Shown in pieces: positions 5,297 through 25,300 of a DNA stretch of 64,000 nucleotides. A model generated the notes under the pieces. The model was not told the DNA's origin and ran no database searches. It worked only from the letters and a program-made list of their open reading frames with translations. Location of the stretch: positions 23,752 to 87,751 of IMG/VR virus record IMGVR_UViG_3300023259_000001; one strand, 5' to 3'. How positions within the stretch are numbered: the stretch's first letter is position 1; each line of letters starts with the position of its first letter. The stretch comes from a virus (taxonomy: Duplodnaviria > Caudoviricetes). Position numbers and translations under genes: made by a program.

Positions 5297-5337
5297 CTAT
5301 TGACAAGCGTAACAGTAATCGTTTATTCTGTCAATAG
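5297..5337. promoter_or_regulatory. Overlapping divergent sigma70-type promoters inside a 9-bp inverted repeat
   Basis: + strand TTGACA(5300)-N18-TATTCT(5324); - strand TTGACA(5334)-N17-TACGCT(5311); CTATTGACA...TGTCAATAG; sits at the strand switch. Confidence 0.8.
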
Positions 5338-5394
5338 CAGTAAACGACAACAGAACAAATAAGCCGCGAGGCTCTAAAGCGCGAAAGGAATAAC

Positions 5395-5691
5395 ATGAGC
5401 TATTACAGCGTATGCCCTGACCCCTCCGCGTTCTCGGATGGTTGGGATGACGAACCAGAACCCGACGAAGAAAGTGGTGCCCGCGAAACGCTGCCCGACG
5501 AATACGGCCCCGACCCCGAACTCGCCGCCCACTGGGACGAAGCGGACGAAGGCGACATGCGGTACGACCTGGCTGAGGAAGCCCGGCTGTTCCCGCCCGA
5601 GTACATTACTATACCGGCCCTGCACCGCATCGAGTTGCGCGTGGCCCGGCTGAACGTGCCGGAGCTGGCGCGCATTGAAGAGGTGGCGTGA
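5395..5691 (+). CDS. Highly acidic small early protein
   Basis: SD AAAGGA; about 27 of 98 residues are Asp/Glu. Confidence 0.75.
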   Translation: MSYYSVCPDPSAFSDGWDDEPEPDEESGARETLPDEYGPDPELAAHWDEADEGDMRYDLAEEARLFPPEYITIPALHRIELRVARLNVPELARIEEVA

Positions 5692-10948: not shown

Positions 10949-11266
10949 ATGAAGGTAACGAAGTGGGTGGAATTCTCGCAGGAAGTCGAGATCTCCCTGG
11001 GCGTGGAGGATATTAGCTCGCTGCTCAGCGAGTCGCTAATCTCCGAGCGTCAGGAGACCATTCAAGGGGTGCTGTACGCGCTGAATAGTATCGCGACGTT
11101 TCTTCGCGCCATTGGGGACAAGCAGATCGCCGCGATGCATCCGATCCACCGGCGGACCGTCGCGACTTTTCTAGCGCAACAGTCAGGGCGCTTTCAAAAT
11201 CCGGAACCAGCCGGGGACGCGGCGGCGGCCACGGCGGCACCAAACAATGAAGATTTGAAAGGTTGA
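10949..11266 (+). CDS. Hypothetical protein
   Basis: SD GGAGAG, protein-like. Confidence 0.65.
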   Translation: MKVTKWVEFSQEVEISLGVEDISSLLSESLISERQETIQGVLYALNSIATFLRAIGDKQIAAMHPIHRRTVATFLAQQSGRFQNPEPAGDAAAATAAPNNEDLKG

Positions 11267-11269
11267 ACC

Positions 11270-11494
11270 ATGACACTCTCACGGCTTGTAACCTACTACT
11301 ACCACGACAGAATGATGTTACCCAAGCTGCCCATGAGATTCTTTGGATGCAGGCACAAACGTACGACTTGGCCCCAGAGGCCCCGCGCCAAGGGGCCGGC
11401 ACAGTCCTCGGGCGGGGAAGTGGTAATGTGTTCGGATTGCGGCCGGAGATTCAATTACGACTGGGAAAAGATGCAGATGGGGGAAGAGATATGA
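11270..11494 (+). CDS. Small Zn-ribbon protein
   Basis: FFGCRH...VMCSDCGRRFNYDW; SD AAAGGT; its stop overlaps the next ATG. Confidence 0.65.
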   Translation: MTLSRLVTYYYHDRMMLPKLPMRFFGCRHKRTTWPQRPRAKGPAQSSGGEVVMCSDCGRRFNYDWEKMQMGEEI

Positions 11495-13014
11495 GTACTT
11501 CAATTGAATGGACGGATGTTACGTGGAATCCGACGCGGGGGTGTTCGAGGGTGAGTGAGGGGTGTAGAAACTGCTACGCGGAGCGAATAGCTGCGCGCTT
11601 CAGCGGCTCATGGAAAGGCGAGCAGGCACTGCGGTTCGAGCCGGGTCCGTTTGGCTCATTCGCGGTGAGGACCGATTCAGGCCCGCGATGGACCGGCCAC
11701 GTTGAACTGATCGAAGACAAGCTGCAGGAGCCGCTGCACTGGAAGCGGCCCCGGCGCGTCTTCGTCAACTCGATGAGCGACCTATTTCATGAGTCACTGC
11801 CGTTTGAGGATGTTGCCCTGGTCTACGCCGTGATGTACAGCGCCCACGGCGAGCACCACACGTATCAAATTCTGACAAAGCGTCCCGCAAGACGGCTTGC
11901 GTTCTTCGCGTGGCTGGCGAAAGAGTCGCATCGGCACCATTGTTCGATACCGGATCTGCTGTCTCACGAATTCGCCGCAACGCTGCCACCGGCCGCTTAC
12001 TTCTCGGACTGGCCGCATCCACATATCTGGGAAGGAGTCAGCGTCGAAGACCAATTCACCGCGGCCGCCCGCATTTCCCTGCTGCTTCAGACGCCAGCAG
12101 CACTGCGGTTTGTGTCGTATGAGCCGGCGCTGGGCCCGGTGAACTTTAGCCGACATTTTGGAGAAGGCAATGAGGCCAACGCAAAACGAGGAAGTGGTGT
12201 ACCAAGCGGTCGTGGACGAGGAGCTCAGGATCGACGGCCAAGGCAGGATATGGAGGGTGTCGGCGCGTCGGGGGAACCGATGGGCCAACACGACGAGCTT
12301 AATCCGCTGTCATCCGCGGCGTGCGGAAGTCAAGGTAACCAACGGATACCTCCAGGTCAGGGTTATGTGGAACAACAAACGGGTGGCCGCGCTAGCGCAC
12401 CGTCTCGTGTGGCTGCACTTTTACGGACCAATCCCTCCGGATTTGACGGTGAACCACAGGAACGGCAAGACGAACGACAACGATCCAGGGAACCTCGAAC
12501 TGGCGACGTACTCGTACCAGGTCATTCACTCGTGGCGGGTATTGAAACGGAGGTGGCAAAGCGGAGAGACGAATCATCGGGCGACGCTTACGGAATCGGC
12601 GGTCCTGGAGATTCGCCGCAGGAGGCTTGCCGGCGAGAAACTCAAGTCGATAGCCACTACGTTCGCGGTGTCGGATCGGGAAATATCGAAAGTGGCCAGG
12701 AGAGATCGTTGGGCATTTCTTGGGTGATCTGCGGCGGCGAATCAGGCCCCGGCGCCCGCCCGTTCGATCTGGCCTGGGCGCGCAACGCACGCGATCAATG
12801 CGCGGCGGCCGGAACGGCGTTCTTTATGAAGCAAGTGGGAGCGCACCCCATTCTGTCAGTGACCGATCTCCATAAATTGCTGGCCGAGTTGCCGGATACC
12901 GACAGAACGCTGGAGGATAACTGCTACCGCCTGAAGCTCCGCGACCGCAAAGGCGGATCAATGGAAGAATGGCCAGAGGATATCCGCGTGCGCCAGTTCC
13001 CGGAGGCGCGCTGA
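11491..13014 (+). CDS. Phage Gp37/Gp68 (DUF5131) radical-SAM-like protein with a ~188-codon internal insertion
   Basis: TSIEWTDVTWNPTRGCSRVSEGCRNCYA, VFVNSMSDLFH, SYEPALGPV, WVICGGESGPGARP, FFMKQVG, RKGGSMEEWPEDIRVRQFP. Confidence 0.9.
   Translation: MSTSIEWTDVTWNPTRGCSRVSEGCRNCYAERIAARFSGSWKGEQALRFEPGPFGSFAVRTDSGPRWTGHVELIEDKLQEPLHWKRPRRVFVNSMSDLFHESLPFEDVALVYAVMYSAHGEHHTYQILTKRPARRLAFFAWLAKESHRHHCSIPDLLSHEFAATLPPAAYFSDWPHPHIWEGVSVEDQFTAAARISLLLQTPAALRFVSYEPALGPVNFSRHFGEGNEANAKRGSGVPSGRGRGAQDRRPRQDMEGVGASGEPMGQHDELNPLSSAACGSQGNQRIPPGQGYVEQQTGGRASAPSRVAALLRTNPSGFDGEPQERQDERQRSREPRTGDVLVPGHSLVAGIETEVAKRRDESSGDAYGIGGPGDSPQEACRRETQVDSHYVRGVGSGNIESGQERSLGISWVICGGESGPGARPFDLAWARNARDQCAAAGTAFFMKQVGAHPILSVTDLHKLLAELPDTDRTLEDNCYRLKLRDRKGGSMEEWPEDIRVRQFPEAR
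12170..12727 (+). CDS. HNH homing-endonuclease-like protein with C-terminal HTH, nested in another frame inside DUF5131
   Basis: GYLQV...AHRLVWLHFYGPIP..LTVNHRNGKTNDNDPGNLELAT...N; GETNHRATLTESAVLEIR; SD GGAGAAGG. Confidence 0.85.
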   Translation: MRPTQNEEVVYQAVVDEELRIDGQGRIWRVSARRGNRWANTTSLIRCHPRRAEVKVTNGYLQVRVMWNNKRVAALAHRLVWLHFYGPIPPDLTVNHRNGKTNDNDPGNLELATYSYQVIHSWRVLKRRWQSGETNHRATLTESAVLEIRRRRLAGEKLKSIATTFAVSDREISKVARRDRWAFLG

Positions 13015-13205
13015 TGCCAATAGCGTATCTCGCCGATGAACCAGCGATTGCGCACGAGTGTATCCGCTGCCACGTGGCGTTTCGTTCGAAATGCCGCAAC
13101 GTGAAGCGCTGCCCAACCTGCCGCAAGTTGAGGAAGGTCGAGGCGCAGGTGCCCTACTGTGAACGCAAGGCGCGCAGGGATAGACGGGGAATGGGAGTAA
13201 GGTAA
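13014..13205 (+). CDS. Small Zn-finger protein
   Basis: CIRC...CPTC; TGATG coupling, SD GGAGG. Confidence 0.65.
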   Translation: MPIAYLADEPAIAHECIRCHVAFRSKCRNVKRCPTCRKLRKVEAQVPYCERKARRDRRGMGVR

Positions 13206-13225
13206 AAGGTCTGTACAGACCTTTT
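13204..13225. terminator. Perfect 22-bp palindrome, likely bidirectional intrinsic terminator
   Basis: AAAAGGTCTGTACAGACCTTTT at the convergence of the early (+) and late (-) operons. Confidence 0.7.
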
Positions 13226-13260
13226 GTGCTTAGGCTCGCCGTGTTTGGTGGCGAAAGGTG

Positions 13261-13290
13261 AGGATAGCGGGTTGCTGAGGGGAATGTCAA
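13261..13290 (-). promoter_or_regulatory. Putative leftward sigma70 promoter
   Basis: TTGACA(13290-13285)-N18-TATCCT(13266-13261). Confidence 0.5.
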
Positions 13291-13307
13291 GTAGCAGGAT
13301 AAAGATT

Positions 13308-13359
13308 ATTGTTTGGTGCCGCGCCCGTCGCATCCGCGCCGGATCGCTGGATCCAGATT
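13308..13359 (+). repeat. Dispersed repeat copy 1 (inverted partner at 29865-29916)
   Basis: ATTGTTTGGTGCCGCGCCCGTCGCATCCGCGCCGGATCGCTGGATCCAGATT; 50/52 identical to the reverse complement of 29865-29916. Confidence 0.95.
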
Positions 13360-13371
13360 GAGCGGCTCCGG

Positions 13372-16300
13372 TTAGTGTCCCGCGGCTTCCCTGCGCAGCG
13401 CCTTCTCCCGCTTCTCTGGGCTGGAGGCATTCTGCACGATCCCCTGAGTGACGGGGTTCAGGTCGGCAGCCATCCGCCACCAGGCGTTGCCCACCCTCCC
13501 CTTGTCGCTACCGAGGAATCCGGTATGCTCGCCCACGTCGCCATAGAACGCGTTGAGCTCGCGGATCGAGGCGCCGATGGTGGCTCCAACTTCCGACGCA
13601 TAGCCGGCGTGTTTCTGCGCAGGCGCGGAAGAGAGCGCCGGCATCAGGCCACCCATGAATCCAGGCTTGCGCGTGTTGGACGTCGCAGGCATCAGCTTGG
13701 GGCCGGGCTCCACATAGGGCTCATAGCCTTGGCCCAACAGCCCGCTGCCCAGCACGAACATGGCGTGCGAGGCGGGGCCTTCCATGGGATGCGCCAGGCT
13801 GTTGGAGATATCGGAGAAGGCAGATTGCGCCATCTGCGCGCCAGTGCCACCGCCTTGCATGGTCTGGAATAGTTGCGGCACGCCGAATAGGCGGGCGCCG
13901 CGGGCCGGTAGGGGGTTGTACCAATCAAAGTTCAGATAGCCCACTTCCGGACCGGTTCCCCACATGGCATTGCCCAGTTTCGAATGCCGGTACTGATCGA
14001 TATAGCCGTTGCCACCGCCGACCGGGATGGAGAACAGTTTGGCGCGCTTGTCTTCGAGCGGCCAGTTGCCGGTGAGTAGCTTGTAGCCGATCACCCAGAG
14101 CGCCACGGCCATCATGCTCGAGGCCGCCCACATCCATGCGCGCGCTTCGGGCGTCATCTTGCCATATGGCCCTTTCCCGCCGGCGGCCAGGGGAGCCCCG
14201 GTGTAGGAGTCCACGGCGTTTACCATGCGCGTCATACCGGCGGTTGCAAACGGGCCCATGCCGATGCGCTTGATGAATTTCTCGATCTCGCCCTGGAATT
14301 CCGGGGTGTAGTTCCCGAGCTGATTGACGAAGTGGTACAAGTTGCTGGGGGTCTGCTCCTCGGCGGGGAATGCGGCCGTGAAAATGTCGTGCATCAGGAT
14401 GCGCGCGCGGGCGTCGAGCCCTTTCGGCCCGAACAACAGGGGGCCGAAAGAGGCGCGCTCGACCTTGGCGCCGGTAGCCTCGGCGAATTCTTTCGAATAC
14501 GTCACCTTGCCCGATCGCGCCGGCATGGCGCCGGCCTGCGCCATCTTCTGCAGCTTGGCGATGTTCTCCGGGGTGGTGGGATCGGTCGCCAAGAGCTTGC
14601 CGCGGATAGCCGCCCACTTGATGAGCGGCAGAGAGAGCGCTTTGTCCAGACCGGAGTTGCCCAGGAAGGGTGTGTTGGAATAAAGCGCGCCCATGACGCC
14701 GGCCGAGTGAAACAGGAATTCGTAGGGGCCCTTGGTGGCCAGCATGTTCGCCCAGGCCATCATTTTGGCTACGTCGTTCGGGTCGCTGGGTTCTTTGGCC
14801 AGGATCGGCCGTAAGCCCCGCTCCATGAACTTCGGCATAACTCCGAAGCTGGCCGGGATATGGGTAACCTTGCCGTTCTGGATCACCAGTCTGGCCTGCC
14901 CGGTTTCGACTTGCGCGCCTTCGCGGACCTCGCCGTCCGGCCCTTTGAACGTTCCGTCCCAGTTGCCGGGCTGGGGCTTGAGCCAGGCGGTCTCTCGCAG
15001 CGTCTTGATGAGCGTGGCCTTGTCGTTGGCACGGATCGCGGAGGCGAGGCGCCGGGCGAAATCCTCCATGTGCACGGAGTAGCCCCCCGAGGATAAGCCG
15101 GTGGCAAAAGCGTTCGCGATGTTCTTGGGCGGGTGGTACGGCAGGCGCCGGCCCGGTCCCGCCATGGTCTGTTTGTCCACCGGTATCAGCGGGTAGTAGG
15201 TGTCGAGCGGTCCCAGCGCATCCGAGAACACACCTTCATTGAGCGCGTGATTCTGCGCCATCACCGCTTCCACCTGGTCTTTGTAGATCTGGTGCGCCGC
15301 AGCTACTCCCGGGTTGGATTTGATGAGGCCGCGGACGTGATCGAAGGCTGGCGCTGGCATCACCCGCTGCACGCGCTCCGCGGCATCGTGGAAGGTGTTC
15401 TCGAGGAATTCGCGGAGCGTGTCCCAGTCCTTCGCCTCAGCCAGGGCCGCGGCGGTCTGTCCCAGGTCCTGCGCCAGGCCGGCGCGCCCTTCGATGTTCG
15501 AAAGCAGTTGCAGGGTCGGGTTGGGGCGCTCGCTCGAGTACTTGCCGTAGACGAAATCCTTCAGGTCTTCTTCCGTCATCTCGGCCGCCTGGTCGGCAAA
15601 ACCGTTCCAGCGATCCTGGATGCCGTCGAGACGGGACTGATCGTAAGCCGTGGCGAGCGTGTCCCAGGTGACGGGAGAGCCTTTGAGCGCCTTCATGATC
15701 GCTGGCATGGCCGAATGCAGGACTGTGGAGGCCTGCGACATGGATCCGCCGGTACGGAGGGCTGCTTCGAATACTTTGCTCGAAGCGTTCTCCACTTCGG
15801 CCAGGGATTGGCCGGGCTGCAGGATGCGCTTCAGGCCGCCCATGGAGCTGTAGTTGGCTTTGGGGGCGTCGTCTTTGCCGAATTTGCGCACCAGGGCGTC
15901 GGTCAGATCGGTGAGCATGGGCGCGGAGCCGCGCTCGCCGCTGTTGGCTGGACCGCCGATGGCGCTTGCAGCGCCCGGCCATTTGTTTGCCCATTGTTTG
16001 GCAAAGTGCGCATAAACTTCTTTTGGGGCCACGCCCACGGAAAGCACGTCGTGGCTCAGCGTGTCGATTTCTACCTCGCCCTTCGTGCTGATTAGCGCGG
16101 TGCCTCTTTGGATCTTGTCGAATTTCGGTCCATAGCTAGGCAGCCCGATTTGCTCAAACCAGTCGGGATGGTTGATGAATGCGGTGCGCTCTTTGCTGGC
16201 GACCTCCCCGTCTGGCTTGATAGCCCACATGAACTCTTTAGGGGAACTCGGCCAACCTGCGGCGTTGCCCCTCTTGATCCACGGCGCATCCGCCGGCGTC

Positions 16301-19300
16301 CCGCCATATTCTCCCCGTAGCAGGTTTGTCCCGGAGGGCTGCAAGTATGCTTGCGGGTTGGCGAGGAATTGCCCAGTCTCATGCGGCGGGACTACCGCCA
16401 TGCCTTCAGGGGTGTCGATGTGGATATCTTGGCCGGGGGCGCCGGCTTTGGCGGCTTGCAGGGCGCTGGAGAGTCTGGAATCAAATGATACTGGAGCCTT
16501 TCCGGTCTGGACGGATCCGCCGCGAACGCGGATGTAGCCCTGGTCCAAAAGTTTGGCTGTGGCTGTCCGGGCGTCGGCGGCGCCGGTGATCTTCATGGCT
16601 GTTTGGCCGTGGGTGGCAATGCCGTTTTCTCCGGTGAGGGGGATGGCTTTACCTTGAGGGGAGATCCATAGGCCGGGACCGCCTTGCTTGGATTCGGTGG
16701 AATCAGTGGTGTCTTCGGGGGTTTTGAAGAGATCACGGAGACGGGAGGATTGTTTGCTTTCTATACGGGTAGGGCCACGAGAAAGATTTTTGTTTGATGC
16801 CGCCGCCGTCACATGCGTGCCGGTGGCTGGTAGGCCCTCGGGTGTCAGGCTGCTTGGTTGGTAGGCGCTGCGCTGGCCGGTTCGGGGGATGGCGAGGGCT
16901 TCGGTTCCGCCACTGGCGGGTGGCGTTCCAGGAACCATTGGATTTGCTGCCGGGTAGTCTTCTCCTGCTCCGGCGAGGATTTCTTTGGCGTAACGTGGAC
17001 GAACATATTTTATGATCCCTCTCATGGGCTCGCCGTGCTTGCGAACCAGCTCGGTATGGTAGGCGCGGAAGAGTTTGACGCCCTCGCTGCGGGTCAGGCC
17101 CAATTCTCCATACCCTTCGCGCGCAAGCGTCCCGCCCACTTCAGCGTATGCTTGTGGCAAGGTAAGGGCCGGGCGCTTCGCCAGGACGGCATTCACCGCT
17201 GTTTGAGCCAGTGGATCGCCAGCGAGGCTGGCAGGGTCCACGTGGTCCTTTTCGATGTCGCCGCGGCCCCGGAGAATTTGCTGGCGGTGAAACTCTTCCT
17301 CAATACGGGCATCCCGCAATCTGGCGGCCGGTAGATCGCCGTCCAGCAAAACGAGCGGACCGGTTGCGGCCCGGCTGCTGGCCACAGCATCGCGAATTCT
17401 TTCAATACGTGCCGCAGCATCAGGCTCCGAATCGGTTGCCGCGAAGGCCGTCAGCGTCTTTTCGAGATCCCGCGCTACGATGTGGCCGACAGTTAGCCCG
17501 TCGAAGTCCGGCGCATTGTATCCAGCCCGCTGAAACGCGGCCATGACGATTGTGCGGGCCGCCTCATTCAGGTAGACTAGGCCCGGCGTGCCCGGTATCA
17601 GGGCTTCGTATTTGGCGTCTGCCGAACGAAAGAAGGGCTGGTGCCCGAGATGGACTGGGGATTGTTCGAGCTTGGGGCGCTCCAGAATCGCCCTTTCGGA
17701 TTGCCAGAGATTCGCCGCCGTCACATCCGTGCCGGTGGCTGGTAGACCCTCGGGTGCCGTGCTGCTTGGTCCTTGCTCACCCGCCGCTTCCTCCGCTGCC
17801 GCAGGCTCAGCCAGTTCCGCCGCTGCCGCCTGCTGGTCCGCCGCGTCGGTTTGCAACTCCTTGGCGAGCGCAGCCTGCCGCTGCAAGAGATTCTTCAGCT
17901 TGGCATCCTGTTCGAAGGGCTTGCCCAGCAGATCGTTGGTATCGGCCAGTTTGCGCTGGGTGTCCGTGATATTGGACTGCGCCGCCTCGGCATGGCGGTC
18001 GATGTTGCGGATGGCGCTTTCGATGCTGGCCAGCGTTCCCAGGGGAGCGTCGGGGTTGGTGTTGGCCGAATAGCTCCAGTTGCCCTTGATCTCGATATCG
18101 GGGAGCGGTTGCGGCTCTAGCCCCCTCGTGGTCATTCCCGGCTGCCGATATCTAGTTTCGAGCGTGAAGCCCCGGTAATTGCCGAAGGCGATAGGTTCGC
18201 GCGAATCCTTCGCTGCGTTGAGAACCTTGGCGATGGCCGCGGCGGCGTTCTTGCGCGCGTCCTCCCCGGCGAAAGTGCGCTTGCCCACGGCGAACTCGGC
18301 CGGCGACTGCTCGCGCAATGCGATGTCGCCCTGGAACTTGGCGAGCGCCTGCTGCTCCGCGCGGATGCGCAAGGGTAGAGACGCGGACTCGCGCTTCAGG
18401 TCGGCCTGCTGCTTGTCGTGGCGCGACCGCATGGCGTCGAGCTTGCGCACCTCGGCGTCAATGACGGTCTTCTCGCGGATGGCTGGATTGCCGGAAGCGA
18501 TCGCCGCGACCTCGGCGTAGGTCAGCGCGGAGTCGGCCACGTCGTCGGCGGTGCGGATGCTGACTTCGCCTCTGATGACTTGGCCGATAAATTGCGCCTT
18601 GGTCTTCAGGGTGTCCCACATCTTCGCGTCGAAGCTGGGTTCGGTGACGTACTGGTAGATTTCGACTTCCGGGTTTTCGTTCCCCTGCCGCAAGATGCGG
18701 CCTTCCCGCTGCTCAATGTCCCGTGGGCGCCAGGGCGCGTCGAGATGGTGCAAGGCAATCAGGCGCTTCTGGACGTTGAGCCCCACGCCCATCTTTTGCG
18801 TGGAGCCCATCAGCACCCGGATGCGACCGGAGTTCACGTCGTGGGAAAGCTGGGCGGCTTCCTCTGTGCCGGTGGCGTCATGGATGAATGCCACTTCCTT
18901 GGCGGGGATGCCGCGCGCGATGAGCTTGGCCTTTACGTCGTCGTAGACGCTGAACTTGTGTTTCTGGCCTGGCTCGGCAGGTTTCGAGAAGTCGAGGAAT
19001 ACGAGTTGCGCGCTGCGGTTGGCCTTGCTGTCCTTCCAGATCCGGACGATCTGGTCCACGGCCTTATTCGTTTTCGAGTCCCGGAAATCTTCCTCGCCGG
19101 GATCGACCAGGCGCATGTCGAGCGCGGACTTTCTCCCGTCGGTCGAGACCTTCAGCATGTTGTCGATGCGCGGGTCTTTGACCTTGCCGCTCTTGATGTC
19201 GTTGGCGCGCGCCGCCAGGTCCTTCAGGTACGCCGTCTGCGCGGGACTTGCCGGCGCCGCTATGGTCGTGCGCTGGCCGCCCTTCAGCCGCGGCACGGGC

Positions 19301-22300
19301 AGTTTCAACATGCTGGCGGTTTGCACGTCGGCCATGAGCCGGAAGCCGGAAACCAACTCTGGGATGTTGACGAACTTCGCAAACCGATTCGTCATGCGGA
19401 AGCCGGAAGCGTCCGGCGAGACTTCCAGCGTCGGCACTACTTCGCCGAACGTGTTGGCCCAGGCGTCGAAGTGCTGCAAGCCATGCTCGCGCAGATAGTC
19501 CGGCTGCAGGTACCGCTGCATGGTCCACATCTCGGCCATGGTGTTCGCTACCGGGGTGCCAGTGGCGAAGACGATTCCACGCCCGCCGTTGCGCTTCGCA
19601 ATGGTCTGGGTCTTGATGAACATATCGAAGGCGCGCTTCGATTCGGTATTGGGCAGTCCCCTTACCCGCGTCATCTTGGTAGGGAAGAACAGGTTCTTGA
19701 AGTTGTCAGCTTCGTCCACAAATAGGGAGTCGACGCCCAACTCCTCGAAGCCGATCCCTGTGTCCTTCGCTTCGCGGTCGGCCTTGCCGCGCAGCTTCGC
19801 CTCCAGGCTCTTTTTGGATTTCTCCATCTGCTTAACGAGCTTGGCGTCGGCCTTTTCCGCCTTCATTTCCAGAAGGTAGTTTTCCAGGTCGGCAATTTGG
19901 TCGCGAAGGTAGGAGTTGAACGTCTCGTCGGAGACGGGCAGCTTTTCGAACGACTCGTAGGAAACGATCACCGAATCCCAGTTGCCTGTGGCGATGCGCG
20001 CCATGACCTTGGCGCGGTTGGCCGCAGTGAACTGCTCGGGTGCCATCACCAGGACGTTCGCGCCGGGGTACATGGCCAGGAACTCGGCGCCGGTTGGCTC
20101 GACGCGGTTCTTGGGCACCACCATCAGGGGTTTCTTGGAGAGTCCCAGACGGCGCAACTCCATGGCCCCGCCGATCATTTCGTAGGTCTTGCCCGCCCCT
20201 ACGACGTGCGCGAGCAGCGTGTTGCCGCCGCTCGAAATGATGCGCCAGACGGCATTCTTCTGGTGGGGACGCAGCTTGATGTTTGCGGCCATCCCCGGCA
20301 ACTCCAGGTGGGAGCCGTCGTATTCGCGCAGACGGAGCGAGTTGAATTCGTCGTTGTAGAGCCTGCCCAGCGTTTCGGCGCGCTCTGGGTCTTGCCATGC
20401 CCATCCACGGAAGCGGTCTTTCAACTGCTGCTGCATCTCGCGCGCGGCGAGCGTTTCTTTCTCGTTGATGACGGTCTTCGTATCCGCGCCGCTGCCGATT
20501 ATGTCGTAGGCGGTTGGCGTCTTCATGTTCAACGCCTGCTCGATCAGATCAGTGGCGCTGAAACGGTCGGTGCCGTAGGTTTTGGAATTGGCGACGTTGT
20601 TTGCGCCCCAGCGGTCTGGCTTGACGGTCCACGTCGCCAGGGCTTCGGAATGCGAGACGTCGACGTTGCGCGGGGAGACTCCCAGCAGTTCGGCGATGTA
20701 CTGCTGAATGTATGGAGCCGGAATCCAGCTTGAGCCCATCTTGGCTTCGATATCCTCGGGTTGGAGGTCCTTGGGTTGCACGGCTTCGAGGGCGTCCACG
20801 TTGCGCTGGAACTGCTGGCCCATAGCCGGCTGGCCTGCAACCGTGCGCGCCTCGGCGAGCTTCTGCCGCACGTTGCCAGACAGGTATTCTTCCTGCGTCT
20901 CCCAGCGGTTGCCGTTCGGGTTCTGATAGATGATTGGCCCCAGTTCCGCCTGCATCTCGGCGGGCGTGCGGCCGGTGAGGTCCTGCATGCGCATCCAGTC
21001 GATGCGGCCTTTCTCGTTGAGTGAGATGGCAAGCGCCTCCTTGGCCGATCCGGCGCTGTCGATCCTCTTGGCCGGGCTGACGGTGCGCTCGCGGAATACC
21101 GGAGCCTTCTCGGCCTTCTTCGCCTCCGCGTCCCACTGTTCGAGCGAGAGAAGCACCGGGGCGTCGGGGTCTCCCCGGAAGGCGCTGATGTTCTGGGGTG
21201 CCGACAGGTAGCCGTTCTTCGCAACGAAGTGATCGTAAACCGTGTTGAGTTGCCGGATGGCCTTCTTGATCTCAGGCTCGGGCGCGTTCTGGATCTGGGT
21301 GCGGAAAACTTCGCGCAAGGCGTCGCGCACCTCGATCATGCCCTTGATGCGCTTCGCCTGCCATTCGGGGTTCGTGGCGGGGACGAGGCGGTCACCATGC
21401 CGCATAACGAGCTGCTTGTTGTCGTCGAGGGCGTAGGCACCGTCCTTGACCGTCGCCTGATCGGCGAAGGATACGGGGCCGGATTGTTCATCTGGCGCTT
21501 CCCAGGCATGGACTGCGTTCTCTGGCAGTTTGGCAATCGCGGCGTCGAGTAGCTCGGGCGTCAGTTCCCCGGTGAGCGCCGCGCTTTTGTCGGCGTACAT
21601 GGTGCCCAGCAGGCCCATCTGCCCCAGCATCATTTCCGGGTGGCGCGCGTAATACTCGTTGACCTCCATCGTGGTCTTGCCGATGGAGCCGTCAGGCCTT
21701 TCGGTGTTGCCCTGGATCTCGGACAGGGCCGTCCAACCTTCGCCTTTCGGTTTGTCGCCTGGGCCGCGCTTTTGCAGGAAGATGATGTCCGTTGTGACTT
21801 CGGTTCCGGCGTTGCCCTTGAATGCCGTATTCGGCAGCCGGATGGCGCCCAACAGATCGGCTTGGCTTGCGAGATACTGGCGCACGGTGCCGTCGCGCTT
21901 ATCCATGGTGAAATTCGAAGTGATGAACGCCACCAGTCCGCCCGGCCGCACCTTATCGAGGGCCTTGGCGAAAAAGTAATCGTGAATCGAGCGTGTGACA
22001 ACCGGGTTGCGCTTGAATGCCGGGTCGTGGATCGCGTAGTTTCCGAACGGAACATTGCTCACCGCGGCGTCAAAGAAATTGCCGGGGAGGCGCACGGTTT
22101 CAAACCCGGCGACATGCACGTCCGTTTCGGGATAGAGCAGCTTGGAGATGCGGCCGCTCAGCGAGTCCAGTTCGATTCCGGTGCGCCGCGAGCCTTCGGC
22201 CAGGTCCTCGGGCATCAGGCCGTAGAAGTGGCCTACGCCCATGGCCGGTTCAAGGAAGCTGGAATTGTCGCGCACGCCGAGGCGGCGCACGGCATCCCAG

Positions 22301-25300
22301 ATTTTCGAGATCACCAGCGGTGAGGTGTAATGCGCGTTGGGGGTAGAGGCGCGGGCGGATTGGAATTCCTCGGGAGTCAGCAGCGCGTCCATTTCGGCGC
22401 GCACGCCCTGCCACTCGCGCGGGATGCCCCAATCGGCGAAGGGTTGCGGCATGCCGCCCCAGCCCACGTACTTGACCAGGATCTTCTGCTCCTCGGGTGT
22501 GGCGTAGCGGCCTTCGGCTTCGACGCGCTTCAAGGCGCGGATAGCTTCCAGGTTGTCGTTGGCTTTTTGACGGATGCCGCCTTCCCCGACGTGGTCCTCG
22601 GGGGTTATGCGGTAATCGGCGGGTCGATCTCCGGTTGGACTGGTCCGGGGGGTAGCTGCAATTCCTCGTCCGCCAGCTCGCTCGCCTGGCTGTGTTCCAG
22701 GCCGCTCCGCAGAAGGTTCGACAGCACCTCCGCGTATCTCCCCAGGGCCGCTAAGGCCAGCTTCTCCAGGTTCCCCTTGCGGCGCATTTGCTCCACCGCT
22801 GACGGGTTCTGTTCCCGCCACTGGTTCACGAGTTGCTGGACCTGGGGTTGCATCCGCCTCCATTATAGGCTGGTTTTCAGGTGTTGGCGCAATCCCCGGT
22901 ACGGATAGTACTTTAGATAACTGCGGCGGCAGCGCCACTGGCTGCATGTCGCTTCGCACTCCGCCTTGGCTTGGACCCGCCGGATGCGCGGTGGCTTCCT
23001 GGAAGCCTGCCATGCTCGGAAGTTGCTCGGTAGCTGGTGGCTTCTGAGTAGGAGCGGCCTGGCCGAAAGGTTCAGCGGTGACGCCCTTGAATTTCTTGAT
23101 GGCCGCTCTGTTTTCCGGTGTGTCCGGTGCGATCCAGGCTTTCTCTTCCTTGTTCCAGTGAACACCTTGGACGGTTTGGCGGATAAGGGCTTTTACCGGG
23201 AAGGTGTTTCCCTTGATGGCAATTTGAGCGGGACCAGCAGCCGGAGAAAGATCAGGCGTTGCTGCCGCCGTGGTCGCCGCCGCGCCCCCGGCTGGTACAA
23301 CCTCGGGTGCCGCGCCCCGGTACAGGTATTGCTCAAACTGCTCCCGATCGAACTTCTGCACCGAGTCATCCGGCATCTTGGCCGTGATGTTGTAGACCTC
23401 GCGCGTGCCTCCGCCGATGGGCGCCCACTTGCCTCCAGGACCGCCCGGCATAATGGGCTGCATCAGGAACGCCGTCTCCTCCTGAATGGTGAGCGAGCCG
23501 TCCGGCACCTTCACTTTGTCGCCGGTGCGCAGCCCTTCCCAGAACGTGCGGAACTGTTCCGGCGCCGGGATCAGTTGGGGTATGTGGTCTTCCACTTCGG
23601 CCCGCATGCGCTGACTCGCGTATGTGCGCACCGCGCCAGGCGCGACGCTGCGCAACTGCTTGTCGATTTCCTTGTACCGGCCCTCGTAATTCTTGCGCGC
23701 TTCCTCGGTTCCAGCCTTGATCTGCGCGCGCCGCTGGTCCGCGCCTCTCTTGCCGGCGACATCCTCCAGCCTGGCGGGTTCGCCGTCGATGAATGCCTTG
23801 GCGGATTTCTGGGCGAAGCGGATGGCCTCGTAATAGGCGTCCGGGGTTTTGAAGTGCGCCTGTAGAGCGGCGTCGGCTTGCGGCGTGAATTCGAGATTGA
23901 GGCGGTTGGCGGCTACGGGCTGCGGCTCCGGAGTTGCCGCCGCGCCCCCGGCTGGTTCCAGTTTCTTTACCTGCGAAACAGGTACATACGCCTCAATCCG
24001 CCCGATTGGCACGCCGCCCGCATGGGCGATCTGGTCGGTGTCGATATCGACGGTGCCGCCGTTCTCGTCCGGCACCCACTTCTGGGCGGCTTGGTCGAAG
24101 CGGTTAGGCTCGATGCTGCGTATTGTTCCAGTGAGCTGCTTGCCGTTGCGAGTGAAGCTGACGCGATCACCTTCCTGGAAGCCCGCGGGCTTGCCTTCCA
24201 GCTTGATATCCGTCTGCTTCCCGTTCTTGTCTGAAAAGCTGACCGTATCCAGCTTCACTTGCTGCCCCGTCACGCCTGGAACACTCAGCCCGTCGTACTG
24301 CTTTCCTTCGCCCGGTTTCAAATAGGCGATGGTTACATGGGGTTGGTAGGAAGGATGGGTGTCGGTATGAGGTAATTGGCTAACGATGGAGTTCAATCGA
24401 TGCAGGTCTGGAGATTCGACGTCCACTTTGAGCACGTCGGCATCGGGAGTTTGGAATAAGGAGGCTTTACCGAGGGTTGCGGTGATGGGACCTTCGTTGG
24501 CCAGGAGCTTCTGGACTTCAGCGGGATCTTCACCATGAAGGCCGAATTTCACGGTGATGTGGGGCTGGGCCTCTCTTCCATCGGCAGCCAGTTTCTTGGC
24601 TGGGATAGTCTTACCGAAATTGACGACAGCTTTCGAGGCAGGGCCGGATAGGTTGGCTTGGGTGCTTGCGAAATCAAACTTGGGAGCGGGTTCATTGCTT
24701 GCAGCCTGCGGAGACGAAACCTCCGGTTTCTTCCCCGCGCCCCCTTCTTCCCCTAACGCATCTGCCGGGATGACGCTCTGTGGCGCGGCGGGAAACTGTA
24801 CCGAGGTGCTCGGTGCCGCTTGGGAAACAGGTGCCGCAACGGGTCTACCAGCCACGGGCGCGGCTGCGACCGGGGCGGCAGCAACATATGATGCTTGTCC
24901 TGGAACTGGTTCGGCTGCTGGAGTTGTCGGCAGACTTGTCGGCGCAACTTGATTTGTCGGCGGACTTTTCGGCAGATTATCCCATGCTGTATCTGCATGC
25001 CTTGCAATGAACACTCCATCTTGTGAAGTGTTCGCTACCGGCGTCATTTCCATGGCTTGTGGATCAATTCTCCACATGGCAGTCGGTCCCATGTGCTGCC
25101 GCTGCAACATGGCCGGGGTCGAGATCTCTCCGGATGCCGGCGCGCCGTTGGCAAACCACGCCTGTGCTGTGTGGACGCCAATCGAATGCGTCAAAAGCAA
25201 AGGCCGCTCGCCCGGCCGCCACGAATCGATGGCCTGCTGAAGGCCGCCGATGAACCTGCCCCTGAAATCGTTGAACGACTCGCCGCCCGGGACGGCTTCG

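Follow-up and report, generated by a model that had tools for sequence, protein, structure and literature searches.

A complete gene for an HNH homing endonuclease was found inside a DUF5131 (Gp37/Gp68) gene of a tailed phage, in another reading frame and with the frame of the surrounding gene left open. The stretch analysed, hereafter the window, comprises 64,000 nucleotides (nt) of a Caudoviricetes genome (positions 23,752 to 87,751 of IMG/VR virus record IMGVR_UViG_3300023259_000001). The parent record is 87.7 kb long, carries direct terminal repeats and is estimated to be complete, and near-identical DNA is present in peat and permafrost metagenomes. Comparison with related loci revealed a direct signature of selection that keeps the host frame stop-free through the insert. 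We consider it likely that the nuclease gene, whose product resembles I-HmuI, is overprinted in a loop of DUF5131, that the host gene is read through it unspliced, that the nuclease is produced from an internal start, and that the element spreads by homing. The features of the locus are the following, ORF denoting open reading frame, aa amino acids and SD Shine-Dalgarno:

11491..13014, + strand: host DUF5131 (Gp37/Gp68) ORF, read through the insertion; 507 aa, 56 kDa, likely start ATG at 11491
11491..12141, + strand: N-terminal part of the host, DUF5131 profile positions 2-167, with a three-Cys motif and the C-terminal end YEPALGPV
12142..12711, + strand: host-frame read-through linker of about 190 codons, stop-free, with many G, R, S, E, Q and P residues; disordered according to prediction
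12160..12167, + strand: SD-like sequence GGAGAAGG, 2 nt from the HNH ATG, its GGAG core 6 nt before the ATG
12170..12727, + strand: HNH homing endonuclease gene, +1 frame relative to the host; 185 aa, 21.6 kDa, pI 11
12392..12514, + strand: HNH_3 catalytic core (AHRLVW...NH..G...N..NLELAT), from Pfam and the alignment of relatives
12593..12697, + strand: helical (helix-turn-helix-like) DNA-binding module at the nuclease C terminus, from the structure model and its matches
12712..13014, + strand: C-terminal host segment (GISWVICGGESGPGARP... to WPEDIRVRQFPEAR), with DUF5131 profile positions 179-219 and the sequence after them
12725..12727, + strand: HNH stop TGA, lying within TGG-GTG-ATC (host W-V-I) of the 3' junction

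The host ORF matched the DUF5131 profile (PF07505) with 241 bits against a Pfam cut-off of 28.9, and it did so in two stretches (profile positions 2-167, then 179-219) that are separated by a gap of about 190 residues, the second beginning at nt 12724. Its frame is also open upstream of 11491, as far as a TTG at 11263. The N-terminal Cys and GGESG motifs are present, and C18, C25, C28, G415 and E417 are invariant in the family alignment. The nested ORF (12158/12170-12727) matched HNH_3 (PF13392) with an E value of 6e-13, above the Pfam cut-off, and H77, H96 and N108 of its core are invariant across 62 relatives. It lies between the host motifs EPALGPV and ISWVICGGESG, with its ATG (12170) about 30 nt 3' of the former. 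Over the approximately 191 codons of the insert, the host frame contains 0 stops and the third frame 8-9. The GC content at third codon positions is 0.72 in the HNH frame versus 0.46 in the host frame, indicating that the HNH frame is the one shaped as coding. An initial annotation of the sequence had described an HNH gene with its own SD sequence between these two motifs, a host frame open for about 188 codons of low-complexity peptide, and an HNH stop overlapping the resumed host motifs; its coordinates and details were all borne out.

A search with the host-ORF protein retrieved four long DUF5131 proteins (P0001, P0004, P0017 and P0019) with filler that could be aligned to that of the window, and the DNA of these four (L004, L005, L006 and L008) carried a homologous HNH ORF at the same place in the +1 frame. 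This search was biased, as it could only recover open frames. An unbiased set was therefore assembled by fetching loci by HNH motifs only, via an HNH alignment, which yielded 28 viral and 80 metagenomic loci; the alignment query was needed, since a search of the viral contigs with a single HNH sequence gave no match. After removal of identical copies, 55 distinct loci nested between the DUF5131 N and C parts were left. In all 55, both DUF5131 parts stood in one frame and the HNH gene at +1, and 54 of them had 0 host-frame stops over 142-431 codons, where synonymous shuffling predicted 5.7. This is the reverse of the frequent stops among relatives that the initial annotation had named as evidence against its reading. 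Free-standing members of the HNH lineage, whose GC content is similar to that of the nested ones, did contain stops in the equivalent frame: 2-7 in those beside an intact DUF5131 gene (8 distinct loci) and up to 13 in others.

The avoidance could be traced to a single codon context. A host-frame stop can arise only where an HNH codon ends in T and the next one begins with AA, AG or GA, and this context occurred at 1 of 2548 positions in nested genes versus 101 of 822 in free ones, a depletion of about 300-fold. A third-position T before harmless codons was about equally frequent in the nested and free groups (19% and 23%, respectively). Furthermore, the host frame stayed open in nested genes whose nuclease had decayed. 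Two of the 55 had an HNH frame that was itself broken by a stop (L019, at codon 71, and one of the two HNH genes of L022, at what we call site A), and three others had an HNH shortened to 138 aa (L008, L077 and L096); the host frame was open in four of these five, L096 being the exception. The comparison thus shows selection that keeps the DUF5131 frame stop-free through the insert, with the depletion as its direct signature.

The C-terminal part of the host bears its own trace of constraint. Residues G415, E417, R423 and C437 did not vary among 29 nested and 31 empty alleles, indicating that selection still acts on the C part as protein. Taken together with stop avoidance, this suggests that the phage depends on translation across the insert to link the C part to the N part. 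In a quick maximum-likelihood tree of the HNH proteins, read without a root and without a direction of change, nested and free forms interleaved, and the starred branches require a minimum of four state changes; thus, the nested/free contrast is not one inherited accident. Judged from these family-wide sequence comparisons, a chance origin of the open frame is untenable. Selection for a disordered linker was considered as a separate line of evidence and dropped: disorder-promoting residues made up 70% of the nested host-frame peptides versus 65.7% of the shuffles (mean Z +2.2), an excess of about the size that stop avoidance alone yields.

Insertion-free DUF5131 alleles, which the initial annotation had recommended looking for, were found. 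P0002/L117 and P0003/L118 have a loop of 11-20 residues at the place of the insertion; in L117, the N part of which is 70% identical to that of the window, the loop EDRLSVEVPGW stands in place of the element. Nucleotide similarity to L117 extended on the 5' side up to about the SD sequence and resumed on the 3' side at LG(G)I(D/S)W. HNH identity followed host identity only weakly in the 24 nested loci compared (Spearman 0.22), and some pairs shared 74-76% identity in the HNH and only 38-43% in the host, a mismatch that fits lateral spread of the element. The best HNH matches in cultured phages were below 40% identity and were annotated as free-standing. No nested form was identified among isolates, where the 40 best DUF5131 matches span 730-915 nt, so that all 40 of these genes are insertion-free. 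When the read-through peptide was searched against 1.84 billion representatives, only 15 matches were returned; the 10 scanned were all DUF5131, and no other host family was among them.

The element was not confined to one site. A second insertion site, after the motif ILTKRPERM/LSKRPERM and before WPLPNVW, was occupied in L020, L029, L100, L103 and L107, again with the HNH gene at +1 and the host frame open, and in the quick tree the HNHs of this second site formed one well-supported clade together with that of L025. L022 (1262-3046, the same as L092) carried two nested +1 HNH genes in one DUF5131 gene; that at site A, after ILTKRPERM, was broken, that at site B was intact, and the host frame was open through both for more than 595 codons. 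The starts of the nested HNH genes were of two styles: 21 loci had an SD sequence, as in the window, and 22 had a TATAAT-like hexamer, defined as a match at 5 or more of 6 positions ending 4-9 nt (mostly 7) before the ATG. The hexamer was present in 0 of 16 free relatives. In L052 (2469-2491) and L062 (2481-2503), for example, it reads (TGn)TATAAT, and the host-frame peptide there is (Y)LGYNP. Its form hints at a promoter within the host gene that would yield a leaderless mRNA for the nuclease. Fusion of the DUF5131 N part to the HNH by programmed frameshifting was also considered and was judged unlikely, because a start codon with either an SD sequence or a TATAAT hexamer stands at the homologous HNH N terminus in 43 of the 55 nested relatives. 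Given these features, we lean slightly towards the view that a large I-HmuI-like lineage of homing endonuclease genes (HEGs) has specialised for an overprinted, unspliced life in DUF5131, always at +1, at two or more sites, in up to two copies and with two expression styles.

Several loci showed further variations. In L024 (1933-3339) and L025 (2338-3216) the nested HNH was flanked by just about 20 N-terminal and about 50-70 C-terminal DUF5131 residues; these ORFs look like deletion derivatives that still hold the frame open. L006 (1946-3915) contained tandem DUF5131 genes, one of 176 aa lying directly upstream of the insert-carrying one of 480 aa. P0121 (681 aa) is a DUF5131 protein with an in-frame HNH_3 at 166-209, and its residues 442-608 match the read-through peptide of the window; this segment probably overlies a second, out-of-frame HNH gene, in which case in-frame and out-of-frame nuclease insertions would co-occur in one gene. 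Free-standing members of the HNH lineage stood directly upstream or downstream of an intact DUF5131 gene in L014, L026, L030, L032-L034, L111 and L112, an arrangement that resembles intron-less homing next to a target gene.

Predicted structures were examined for both products. In an AlphaFold2 model of the read-through protein (60 sequences), the DUF5131 core had predicted local distance difference test (pLDDT) values above 90, and residues 234-403 had values below 50 and formed no secondary structure. This low-confidence segment falls between the strands 205-210 (FVSYEP) and 411-415 (WVICG). The nuclease model had a pLDDT of 93, and its best match in the PDB was I-HmuI (1u3e), with a Foldseek E value of 3e-5 over 179 columns and a profile E value of 6e-9. 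The beta-beta-alpha-metal HNH core with its conserved His and Asn, by which the I-HmuI-like class is defined, was present.

Known signatures of splicing were also sought. An Rfam scan of 11000-13400 at E≤1 matched no intron family, its sole match being a chance RsmY-like one outside the gene, and Pfam found only DUF5131 on the host frame and no Hint domain. These scans agree with the initial annotation, which had seen no intein or intron signature. The HNH ORF spans the whole insert and thus leaves no room for a ribozyme core. Hence, the locus shows neither the ribozyme core around an ORF that marks group I and II introns, for which the state of the host frame would be irrelevant, nor the in-frame Hint domain, splicing blocks and C, S or T at +1 that mark inteins. 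A contig from a metatranscriptome library was identical to the window over 12047-13100, with the insert unspliced, and such contigs, the only form of RNA evidence used, showed no joint that bypasses the insert; cover gaps (e.g., 11934-12046) and low-share runs are uninformative.

A number of observations weigh against our interpretation. The first concerns the open frame in the window alone. Synonymous codon shuffling of the HNH gene predicted 5.9 host-frame stops, with a probability of 2.5e-4 for 0 stops, or 1.4e-3 when codons were drawn from the window's own usage. Such shuffling disregards codon-boundary context, however, and on free-standing relatives it overestimated stops about 1.7-fold (3.9 observed, 6.6 expected). 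With 50 risky contexts and a context-corrected frequency of third-position T, the calibrated probability of an open frame was about 4%, and among the other genes of the window 8% of 189-codon spans were open in the equivalent frame. The open host frame of the window by itself is thus mildly improbable, no more, and is suggestive only. Second, L096 is a single nested relative with a host-frame stop (one). Third, the final approximately 65 DUF5131 codons of L004, the closest relative, contain a +1 frameshift (about 5320-5560), after which the conserved C terminus ...WPEDLRIREFPEVR carries on in another frame; either the assembly is in error or the host gene is decaying, and not all carriers need possess a working one. 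Fourth, the host model had no significant Foldseek match in the PDB (best E value 0.19, TIM-barrel-like rows), and no DUF5131 chemistry is claimed. Finally, the unspliced contig is weak evidence, as DNA carry-over may account for an RNA-library contig and rare spliced forms would not show in contigs.

The best surviving alternative, which we nevertheless regard as unlikely, is that the nuclease is not selfish and has become a domesticated partner of DUF5131, for instance alongside a DNA- or RNA-modifying enzyme, with the overlap serving co-expression. An intact nuclease with conserved catalytic residues in most carriers would be expected of such a partner, and so would the 8 distinct loci in which the same lineage stands free directly beside an intact DUF5131 gene, although free-standing HEGs beside their target gene are also the normal pattern of intron-less homing. 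A partner gene sits less well with the many close DUF5131 alleles that are insert-free, including all 40 of the best cultured-phage matches. Nor does domestication readily account for the discordant HNH and host identities, for two or more insertion sites and a gene with two copies, or for the decayed and shortened nuclease copies.

A somewhat more improbable alternative is that the host gene is split or dead, the C piece being re-initiated at a GTG that overlaps the HNH stop (GTGA), or DUF5131 being dispensable, and that the frame is open by chance. Working genes split by HEGs are known, such as nrdA of phage Aeh1, which is split by mobE. The overlap of the HNH TGA with a host-frame GTG (12724-12727) is a classic coupling arrangement, and the 4-8% chance of an open frame calculated from the window alone would leave room for accident. 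The coupling is not conserved, however: the position of the HNH stop varies among relatives (in L004, for example, it is a TAA within CTA-ATC), and several relatives have no host-frame start overlapping it. Moreover, this explanation leaves the family-wide avoidance of stops unaccounted for, and the invariant residues of the C part were kept in 29 of 29 nested alleles. Least probable of all is removal of the insert by an unrecognised form of RNA or protein splicing that would make the open host frame irrelevant to the product: unorthodox phage introns exist (that in the minor tail gene of phage BAKA is cited in PMC11855218) and novel intron or intein types can escape computational searches, but a spliced insert would face no selection against host-frame stops, whereas 54 of 55 relatives are stop-free with the stop-making context depleted about 300-fold relative to free ones, Rfam gave no intron match, the ORF occupies the space a ribozyme would require, the host-frame peptide is predicted to be disordered and lacks Hint motifs, and the RNA-library contig is unspliced.

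Based on these data, we propose the following model for the overprinted nuclease gene. An I-HmuI-like HNH gene would have inserted in the loop between the DUF5131 strands FVSYEP and WVICG, from where it would be removed at neither the RNA nor the protein level. Ribosomes starting at the DUF5131 ATG would pass through the insert in the host frame and produce the full-length 56-kDa protein, presumably active, in which a disordered linker of about 190 residues, itself the other frame of the nuclease gene, connects the two halves of DUF5131. Ribosomes starting at the internal SD sequence and ATG (12160-12170) would read the +1 frame and produce the 21.6-kDa nuclease, terminating at the TGA made of host codons at the 3' junction. 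Selection for a whole DUF5131 protein would purge those changes that are synonymous in the nuclease and create stops in the host frame. The nuclease would presumably nick or cut insertion-free DUF5131 alleles of co-infecting phages, and repair would copy the element in. Host-frame selection, as deduced from the relatives, offers the strongest support for the unspliced, dual-frame translation in this scheme, though of an indirect kind.

HEGs are thought to persist inside genes only if they split the gene or are housed in an intron or intein that splices itself out. The present case adds strong population-level evidence for a recently proposed alternative, in which the gene is read through in another frame with no removal and no split. 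If this is true, dual-coding stealth HEGs could be common and systematically overlooked, a fourth way of life in addition to introns, inteins and free-standing genes, and they would provide a natural test bed for how enzyme loops tolerate disordered insertions. Gene callers miss such nested nucleases, and the host is then annotated as an oversized DUF5131; the insertions also mark one DUF5131 loop as tolerant of very long additions. Downstream of the locus, the window contains a giant 4827-aa ORF (13372-27855, - strand) with matches to His_Phos_1, 2'-5' RNA ligase-like, ResIII and Helicase_C domains; it encodes 0 cysteines versus 60 Trp and 120 Met.

The nuclease and its setting can be compared with several known systems. 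I-HmuI of Bacillus phage SPO1 is also an elongated protein made of modules, with a beta module at the N terminus, the HNH core, and a helical module for DNA binding at the C terminus, at a sequence identity of about 16%; its gene sits in a self-splicing group I intron, whereas here the gene overlaps host codons in another frame without an intron. Inteins are likewise insertions in a conserved part of a host protein that are translated as one piece with it and leave host function retained; they are in frame, however, and excise themselves by means of Hint blocks, whereas here the nuclease is out of frame, no Hint domain is present and excision is not expected. The mobE gene in nrdA of Aeromonas phage Aeh1 also lies within a host coding sequence with neither intron nor intein, but there the host consists of two separately translated pieces, while here the frame is continuous and is kept so by selection.

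The closest parallel is provided by two cases in mycobacteriophage methylase genes, the ShiLan domain and the Pacc40 insertion, where HNH genes lie concealed out of frame and for which no in-frame stop, no intron or intein signature and a loop-like read-through peptide were described (Arsenault, Gosselin, Gogarten, Genes 2025;16:178, PMC11855218). As in that account, a complete HNH gene lies here in another frame of an insertion within a conserved phage gene, the host frame is stop-free, the HNH ORF starts a few bases inside the insertion and stops at its 3' edge, signatures of introns and inteins are lacking, a loop outside the host fold is predicted for the read-through peptide, and the alleles are disjunct in distribution, the insertion being absent from close alleles. 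The initial annotation had put forward overprinting into a permissive loop as a third way for a homing endonuclease to be tolerated; overprinting is supported by our comparative data and the loop model, but its novelty is not, the concept having been published in 2025 for phage methylases (PMC11855218). What is new relative to that account is the host gene, the nuclease lineage and the relative frame. The host is DUF5131, which the description of the ShiLan and Pacc40 cases does not mention; the nuclease is I-HmuI-like (HNH_3 with a helix-turn-helix) rather than an HNH with zinc fingers; and the frame is +1 rather than the third. A clear SD sequence and ATG replace the GTG described there without a ribosome-binding site, and the carriers are uncultured phages of peat, soil and water instead of actinophages. 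The 2025 proposal, as set out there, drew on a few actinophage methylases and on the absence of stops as such, reported with neither a selection test nor a comparison with free-standing genes; both are supplied here, across dozens of divergent uncultured phages.

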